Below the pieces are notes generated by a model. That model saw nothing but the letters and a program-made list of their open reading frames with translations, searched no databases and was not told the origin of the DNA. The position numbers and the translations under genes were made by a program. A DNA stretch of 62,765 bases, filler included, from Collodictyon triciliatum (Eukaryota), in assembly GCA_043381765.1 (NCBI GenBank). It is 5 parts of 5 records of this genome, joined end to end, with 100 filler letters (N's around TTAATTAATTAA, not from the genome) between each part and the next. Parts side by side here need not be neighbours in the genome. Positions count along the whole stretch, not along the records: positions 8,776 to 32,966 come from JBHJMP010001256.1; 4 more parts are not named here. One strand, given 5' to 3'. Each line of letters opens with the position of its first letter. Within the stretch, counting starts at the first letter, position 1. Positions 19,088 to 19,688 of the stretch are shown in pieces.

Positions 19088-19194
19088 TTGCTGCGCGGCT
19101 TGAAGCTTGAGGGTCGGGCTTTGTGTAACTAGTTGTTTTTTGTGAGGGCAAAGTCAGCACTCTGAGGATAAAGATCAAGTGATGCACACGGCAG

Positions 19195-19600
19195 CAATGA
19201 TGATCGGAGCCCAGGAAACAGATCATGTGAAGGATAGGCTCGGCCTCCAAGAACTTCGTAGGGAATCAGCCAGGGCGATCCCATAATATGATCAGTCAGC
19301 AGAGGCTATGTGCCGTCAAATGTCGTCTGTTCCTGGGCCGGGTGAGGTGTCCACACCTGATAGTCCTTGGTCTTTCCTATCGTCCGCTACGCTTACTAAG
19401 GACGACAGCGCATGGTTCGATCCTCACTTATACCCGCTCGCAACGAGCCTCTGGCAACAGCAGACGGAAACGTCTCTCCGAAAGGAGAGCTTCTGGAAGG
19501 TTCCCGGCTGCCACGTTTCATCCGAATGTGGAAAGGGAGCAGCTGATTCTCGGAACTCTGTTTGTGTGCGAGTCGGTTACCAACCCTTCCAGCACCCCCT
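19195..19600. ncRNA. Candidate structured RNA of unknown class
   Basis: Several long stems and two adjacent GAAA-tetraloop hairpins (19462-19489) in GC-balanced DNA with no convincing protein. Confidence 0.4.
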
Positions 19601-19688
19601 TCGTCACCAACCTCCCGGCATCTCACCGTAAGGCCAATTCCTCTTCTCTCCTGCTGCTGCACACACGCCACACTCCGCTTGATTGGTT

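Follow-up and report, generated by a model that had tools for sequence, protein, structure and literature searches.

What is the block that lies directly upstream of a Bax inhibitor-1 (BI-1) gene in the Collodictyon triciliatum DNA analysed here? The window, by which we mean the whole stretch of 62,765 nucleotides that was analysed, carries this block at positions 19129-19626, and the initial annotation had proposed either a + strand non-coding RNA (ncRNA) or ribozyme or a structured 5' UTR intron regulating BI-1. All ten of the motifs that it had listed with coordinates were exact matches to the sequence, and its hairpins, the donor GTGAGA (19626), the word CTGAC (19157-53) and the acceptor TAG (19129) were all present, as were CCAAT words at 19634 and ~19682. 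Of the two proposals, the 5' region of BI-1 fitted the evidence better than a + strand ribozyme or ncRNA. We give about an even chance to the block being the 5' region of the - strand BI-1 transcript, either as a long leader or as a first intron that is retained or slowly removed. The features on which this interpretation turns are as follows.

19062-19087, - strand: first coding piece of BI-1, ATG ATG ... to the donor GTAAGT at 19061
19129-19626, - strand: candidate 498-nt 5' UTR intron or long leader exon, GTGAGA ... GCTGAC ... CTAG
19077-19621, - strand: five upstream AUGs (19621, 19521, 19413, 19284 and 19226), all within the candidate intron
19634-19771, no strand assigned: probable BI-1 promoter, a function suggested by two CCAAT words and then a (GA)n tract

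The identity of the left neighbour, given by the initial annotation as BI-1, was confirmed. The Pfam Bax1-I family matched two exons of this - strand gene, at 17560-17736 (E 2e-9) and 18415-18678 (E 4e-4), and a full HMMER search of 1.84 billion proteins with exon 2 as the query found a sole protein, an orthologue labelled by its source as Diphylleia rotans, with 51% identity. Compared with the three BI-1 exons, this orthologue showed 49-64% identity. It has 20 residues N-terminal of the first aligned block and is ~9 residues longer at its N-terminus, and by distance from the first aligned block its Met11 corresponds to the Met at 19084. Because Met11 of the orthologue lines up with this position, BI-1 needs no coding sequence from the block. 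Word-based protein searches with the BI-1 exons as queries gave no match, and none of the 596 matches of exon 2 in the JGI metagenomes was confirmed. The D. rotans record (P0001) carries the name suffix '.p2', which by the usual convention presumably means that the transcript of the orthologue has another predicted ORF.

Two minor features of the BI-1 introns were also observed. At 18925-19024, intron 1 contains a pentamer in ~20 perfect copies (by eye), CUUAC in the sense orientation. It is the complement of GUAAG, the donor of this same intron, which lies 37 nt further upstream; the array could pair with and mask this donor, or it could be a plain microsatellite. In intron 2, a 34-nt piece (18258-18291, - strand) lies between CAAAG and GTGAGT (by eye), and its inclusion would shift the frame in the manner of a poison exon.

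Upstream of the block, the next gene ends at ~20008 and has the same strand as BI-1, and the BI-1 promoter should therefore lie between that point and 19087. Transcription would start near the CCAAT words and the (GA)n tract, at ~19630-19770 as judged from these words, and would run through the block to the ATG at 19087 or 19084. The uORFs that begin at the five upstream AUGs are, in order, 5, 41, 5, 51 and 49 codons long, and the 49-codon uORF (AUG 19226) overlaps the BI-1 start. Upstream ORFs in general dampen translation of the main frame. If the block were kept in the RNA, its five upstream AUGs, with one uORF overlapping the start, would lower BI-1 translation, and splicing from 19626 to 19129 would remove all five at once and so presumably release translation.

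Control of this kind is familiar from stress genes of the ATF4/GCN4 type, in which the 5' leader or a 5' UTR intron bears uORFs. The arrangement described here is similar in that several short uORFs precede one running into the main start, in front of the gene of an ER-membrane stress protein; it differs in that its uORFs are predicted from the sequence and one of them is broken in a relative. In a literature search, which lay outside most subscription journals, none of the papers listed for BI-1 together with uORFs or untranslated regions was on this subject by title. As the 5' region of BI-1, the block would be a long leader or first intron of an ordinary sort, of modest interest as a possible brake, through splicing and uORFs, on an ER stress gene in a little-studied lineage.

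The splice words fit this interpretation, as a GT donor, a branch word and a YAG acceptor occur in order on the BI-1 strand. The block was compared with the three introns of the BI-1 coding region for GC content and acceptor composition, with approximate intron ends. Its GC content was 54% against 31-36% in these introns, and the candidate acceptor is rich in A, a composition that differs from that of two further acceptors of BI-1 and could slow splicing. The far higher GC content and the A-rich acceptor count against a first intron at this position.

Records from RNA libraries cover about the BI-1-proximal part of the block.

19113-19347, no strand assigned: stretch covered by two contigs, from freshwater environmental RNA runs of two studies

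The first contig spans 19113-19327 (depth 3.3) and the second 19197-19347 (depth 2); both are 98-99% identical to the block. These contigs carry neither strand nor end information and may derive from DNA, and the GAAA-capped hairpins described below lie outside their coverage. The longer contig crosses the proposed acceptor at 19129 unspliced and continues 16 nt into the exon before the ATG. Contigs were sought in four of the seven runs listed: two RNA runs gave one each, and two DNA runs, one with a 0.19 share of the block's words and read to 62%, the other read to 3%, gave none, a result without weight as evidence. No spliced joint across the candidate intron was seen in these four runs, and BI-1 exon 1 had no contig of its own. 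Among all seven, three hold a small share of the block's words (0.14-0.19) and none reaches half; a share this small suits an RNA present at a low level better than an RNP of high abundance.

Both contigs show the same three differences from the block, namely 19206 G>A, 19281 C>A and 19302 G>A. None of them falls in the long stem described below, and two fall in + strand pairs of predicted probability 0.99. Against 45 random sets of changes of the same type, the effect of the three together on the + strand equalled or exceeded that of 34 sets in destabilising the fold and of 40 sets in shifting the ensemble; on the - strand the counts were 28 and 42. Nothing in these differences points to selection acting on the predicted fold, although three sites make weak evidence. 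Additionally, two of the differences create UGA stops in one - strand uORF frame. In the relative, the 51-codon uORF is broken by two stop codons, and its peptide is therefore not conserved.

Taken as the 5' region of BI-1, the block lies between words resembling a promoter and a BI-1 start in line with the orthologue, and one transcript accounts for both contigs, including the 16 nt of exon. In addition to the fitting splice words, folding is near chance and the three changes ignore the fold. Against this stand the GAAA pair and the best long fold, which are on the + strand, and the lack of a spliced record or an exon 1 contig. Contigs of depth 2-3.3 without strand, maybe from DNA, are also a point against it, and it leaves a cluster of GATCA words unaccounted for. 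The more specific proposal of a structured intron fared poorly, since the sole RNA record across 19129 is unspliced and the natural changes ignore the fold.

Folding of the block was compared with that of shuffled sequences, and the block as a whole is not a convincing structured RNA. On the + strand, 19180-19630 gave a folding z of -1.50, with 8 of 100 shuffles as good, and the - strand gave a z of -0.34 (33 of 100). Among 16 other GC-rich 451-nt stretches in the window, each compared with 14 shuffles, two scored lower, both within long ORFs. When all ten nested helices of the initial annotation were enforced, the energy was -147.2 kcal/mol against a minimum of -156.6, that is, ~9 kcal/mol above the minimum and about equal to the shuffle mean of -147.9. 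A folding energy no better than that of shuffled controls, combined with the lack of a discrete transcript, had been named beforehand as evidence against a structured element, and the first half of this pair was found, as the energy is not clearly better than that of shuffled sequences. Structure beyond chance was not confirmed for the block as a whole; some local elements did stand out, namely the pair of GAAA hairpins, the helices of at least 8 bp and, at the borderline, the 321-nt + strand fold. The elements concerned are listed here.

19209-19338, both strands: long stem GCCCAGGAAACAGA/TCTGTTCCTGGGC, probability 0.88-0.93, closing an irregular 130-nt hairpin
19462-19489, + strand: two adjacent GAAA-capped hairpins; of the window's 21 tetraloop hairpins, no others form such a pair
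19108-19428, + strand: G-U-rich long-range fold of 321 nt that encloses ATGATGA (19197) and CTGA (19357), of borderline significance

When 19180-19630 was folded on the + strand, pair probabilities in the ensemble were 0.89-0.93 for the long stem, 0.94 for GTGAGG/CCTCAC, 0.98 for GTCCTTGGT/ACTAAGGAC, 0.95 for the GCTCG hairpin, 1.0 for the CTCC hairpin and 0.63 for the AGACG hairpin. GTTCC/GGAAC and GCTGC/GCAGC (0.01 each) and the closing AGC/GCT (0.005), which had been drawn as part of the same fold, were unpopulated in this ensemble, and GTGAGG/CCTCAC and GTCCTTGGT/ACTAAGGAC fell to 0.00 once the folded stretch was widened to 19100-19690. The long-stem hairpin was equally stable on the + and - strands. 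Cut by hand at 19205-19340, it gave z values of -3.2 and -3.3 on the two strands; after correction for the choice of window, 19 of 61 shuffles were as good, and 31 of 83 in a version based on raw energy. The long-range fold at 19108-19428 had a z of -3.11 on the + strand and -1.30 on the - strand, and after the same correction 3 of 46 shuffles were as good on the + strand, a count biased in favour of the fold, as the window grid was centred on the optimum seen in the block.

Two tetraloop hairpins at most 25 nt apart occurred in 1 of 2000 shuffles of 19185-19630 and any two tetraloop hairpins on one strand in 4 of 2000, while 6 of 200 shuffles had four perfect helices of at least 8 bp. All of these statistics were chosen after the sequence had been seen, and for a block picked out of many windows. 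The longest helix, 9 bp, was reached by 64 of 200 shuffles, and the count of hairpins of at least 5 bp gave P 0.20, so that neither was above chance. Most of the hairpins in the block are thus a chance product of a sequence with 54% GC. The + strand preference claimed for the tetraloops was correct, as the GAAA pair reads as tetraloops on the + strand alone.

The rival that survives best, which we nevertheless consider unlikely, is a single-copy structured ncRNA that would be read from the + strand, in antisense to the leader of BI-1, and would belong to a family absent from Rfam. Its GAAA tetraloops would perhaps serve tertiary docking, box C (19197) and box D (19357) would perhaps form a kink-turn, and crossing pairings are predicted, perhaps, between 19188-93 and 19311-16 and between 19300-07 and 19446-53. 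The adjacent GAAA hairpins, unique in the window, argue for such an RNA, as do the four long helices, although a scan of many windows will turn up events of one in 2000. The + strand folds better than the - strand in three strand comparisons and in one of three hand-cut pairs; the corrected folding tests (19 of 61 and 3 of 46) count against such an RNA. One contig starts exactly where the box-C-like word does, at 19197, but the other reaches 77 nt upstream of the start proposed for the RNA. Of the predicted pairs, two with probability 0.99 are lost through the natural changes, and the change at 19302 breaks one pair of the 8-bp crossing helix unless position 19451, outside the contigs, compensates. 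No terminal stem was seen by eye at the C/D words, there is no Pol III stop near 19630 and no terminator within 140 nt, and no run of four T occurs near the block ends on either strand.

A more elaborate form of this proposal takes + 19108-19630 as a folded ncRNA or ribozyme of an undescribed family in a deep-branching, collodictyonid-like eukaryote. Its outer stem would be rich in G-U pairs, a kink-turn would form at the C/D-like words, GAUCA pairings would be able to switch, and two crossings of the pseudoknot type and tandem GAAA tetraloops would complete the fold. Its antisense overlap with the BI-1 leader could set BI-1 splicing or translation; we regard this form as improbable. A real + strand RNA would represent a new RNA family in a lineage near the base of Amorphea (PMC10492846). 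In literature searches that lay outside most subscription journals, no report of a Diphylleia telomerase RNA was found, and no survey of Collodictyon ncRNAs was among the matches listed.

The failure of the initial annotation to match the block to known RNA families was reproduced with Rfam, ARAGORN and pattern tests. Rfam gave no hit at the gathering score in the whole window, and three scans of the block up to E 10 gave 6, 3 and 5 hits with best E values of 0.75, 3.2 and 0.92, all far below gathering. ARAGORN found no tRNA in the window. The TPP riboswitch CUGAGA, an Sm site, the U1 5' end and the U6 ACAGAGA had no match in the block. SRP helix 8, with its GNNA loop and conserved symmetric loop, was absent on both strands, with no SRP hit in Rfam, and the group II domain V pattern (AGC/CGC triad and bulge) was negative, again with no Rfam hit. 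The single hammerhead-like CUGANGA, at 19162, is without stem II (by eye) in a search for CUGANGA, stem II and GAAA. For telomerase, whose template should exceed one telomere repeat, the longest template match to eight common repeats was 4-7 nt, and 6 nt for TTAGGG, where the host repeat may be another. The + strand has RUGAUGA and CUGA as in a box C/D snoRNA or U3, with the flanks unpaired beside the boxes (by eye) and no U3 in Rfam.

Several likenesses were closer but incomplete. With a group I intron core, the block shares an R-like CAGAGGCTA at 19300 followed by a P3-like strand, and TAGTCC at 19361; in contrast to group I introns, the S consensus is absent, P4-P6 are out of order (by eye), RF00028 was not matched and the change at 19302 breaks a P7-like pair. 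A 3' U tract is a feature of 7SK snRNA. The block resembles 7SK in its repeated GAUC words with possible alternative pairings, a feature described for this metazoan RNA in PMC10083321; it differs from 7SK in having neither a 3' U tract nor, by eye, a GAUC/GAUC helix flanked by stems, and in giving no Rfam hit. Adjacent short hairpins with purine-rich loops recall P8/P9 of RNase MRP and RNase P RNA (PMC1796607), whereas the block contains no P4 pair, Rfam hit or Pol III terminator. By the loosest of the MRP P4 criteria of PMC1796607 (5' and 3' consensus words 80-500 nt apart with at most two deviations or one broken pair), the best candidates had four deviations plus a broken pair on the + strand and five plus a broken pair on the - strand. 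Nuclear RNase P RNA, judged by Rfam alone, gave no match. Resemblances seen by eye to the SRP Alu domain, U1, U3, a tRNA B box, 7SK and SNORD88 were rejected, as no model scored them.

A search with the tandem-hairpin pattern returned nothing in IMG/VR; in GTDB it returned 10 loci without similarity beyond ~30 nt around the pattern, one of which is bacterial SSU rRNA. Phages and plasmids gave no match. No homologue of the block was found beyond the two contigs. A repeat or Fanzor origin was considered and rejected, as the window holds no second copy; a 15-nt match at 9940 has an E of 4.4.

A further possibility, which we hold to be distinctly unlikely, is that the block is mainly promoter DNA, with the BI-1 start at ~19150-19200, GATC(A) words as repeated factor sites and contigs derived from DNA or read-through.

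19173-19293, no strand assigned: cluster of five GATC words, the densest GATC cluster in the window

Of the natural differences, all but one lie directly after GATC, so that the five words all become GATCA. A 5-mer repeated five times within 121 nt was reached by 46 of 5000 shuffles, which speaks for promoter DNA together with the fact that contigs from RNA libraries can be DNA. Some 4-mer is clustered equally in 2085 of 5000 shuffles, however, the CCAAT words are ~450 nt further upstream, and the stretch is present in RNA libraries of two studies. An explanation of the cluster by 6mA at ApT was discarded, as the ApT observed/expected ratio of 1.29 is equalled elsewhere.

About as unlikely is a - strand RNA cut from the intron, which might be a stable intronic RNA or a long scaRNA-type box C/D guide with the U2 5' region as its target.

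19171-19246, - strand: two complements to the 5' part of U2, 11 nt at 19171-81 and 8 nt at 19239-46 (by eye)

The complements lie near G11/G12 and G25 of U2, one-mismatch C boxes occur at 19607 and 19427, and CTGA is found at 19157. In a box C/D guide, box D (CUGA) stands five nt downstream of the target-paired base. At that distance the block has CUAU/CCUA and UCCU rather than CUGA (by eye), and the Rfam C/D hits are at chance level (E 3.2-8.9). An 11-nt match is unremarkable where many RNAs were compared, the contig that crosses 19129 is no product of intron processing, and the abundance in the runs is low. With U2 and U6 pieces as targets, no complement of at least 10 nt was seen by eye beside a box D or D' on either strand. 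Like the block, scaRNA2 and scaRNA9 are a few hundred bases long. The G11/G12 and G25 sites are methylated in human U2 (PMC3866641 and PMC6412121). Compared with scaRNA2 and scaRNA9, which guide U2 methylation (PMC6412121), the block similarly has two U2-complementary words on the sense strand and C-/D-like words, and differs in having no box D at guide distance, clear terminal stem, UG-rich wobble stem or Rfam hit.

That part of the block codes for a peptide, through the 107-aa + strand ORF or another frame, is highly improbable: the three natural changes share a codon phase and are silent in the + frame open from 19231, but sharing a phase is a one-in-nine chance, that frame has four TGA upstream of 19231 where TGA ends three of five long ORFs checked, and BI-1 needs no extension. 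The 107-aa ORF, whose conservation would have spoken against an RNA element, had no Pfam match, exact record or homologue of similar length. An overlapping 153-codon + frame gave 306 pattern matches in the JGI metagenomes and 13 in IMG/VR, none of them confirmed, and a codon score failed to separate coding from non-coding sequence.

Elsewhere in the window, 23450-23900, within a long low-complexity ORF, gave a z of -4.4 on the + (antisense) strand with 14 shuffles. A gene converging on BI-1 at 15906-17199 has 66-75% GC in two 451-nt samples, although the window is otherwise rich in AT; its match to a nucleoside phosphorylase is weak (E 0.004). Finally, 41184-44072 contains an intron-free frame of 962 codons in which an AAA-type ATPase region is combined with numerous TPR repeats in an NLR-like layout.
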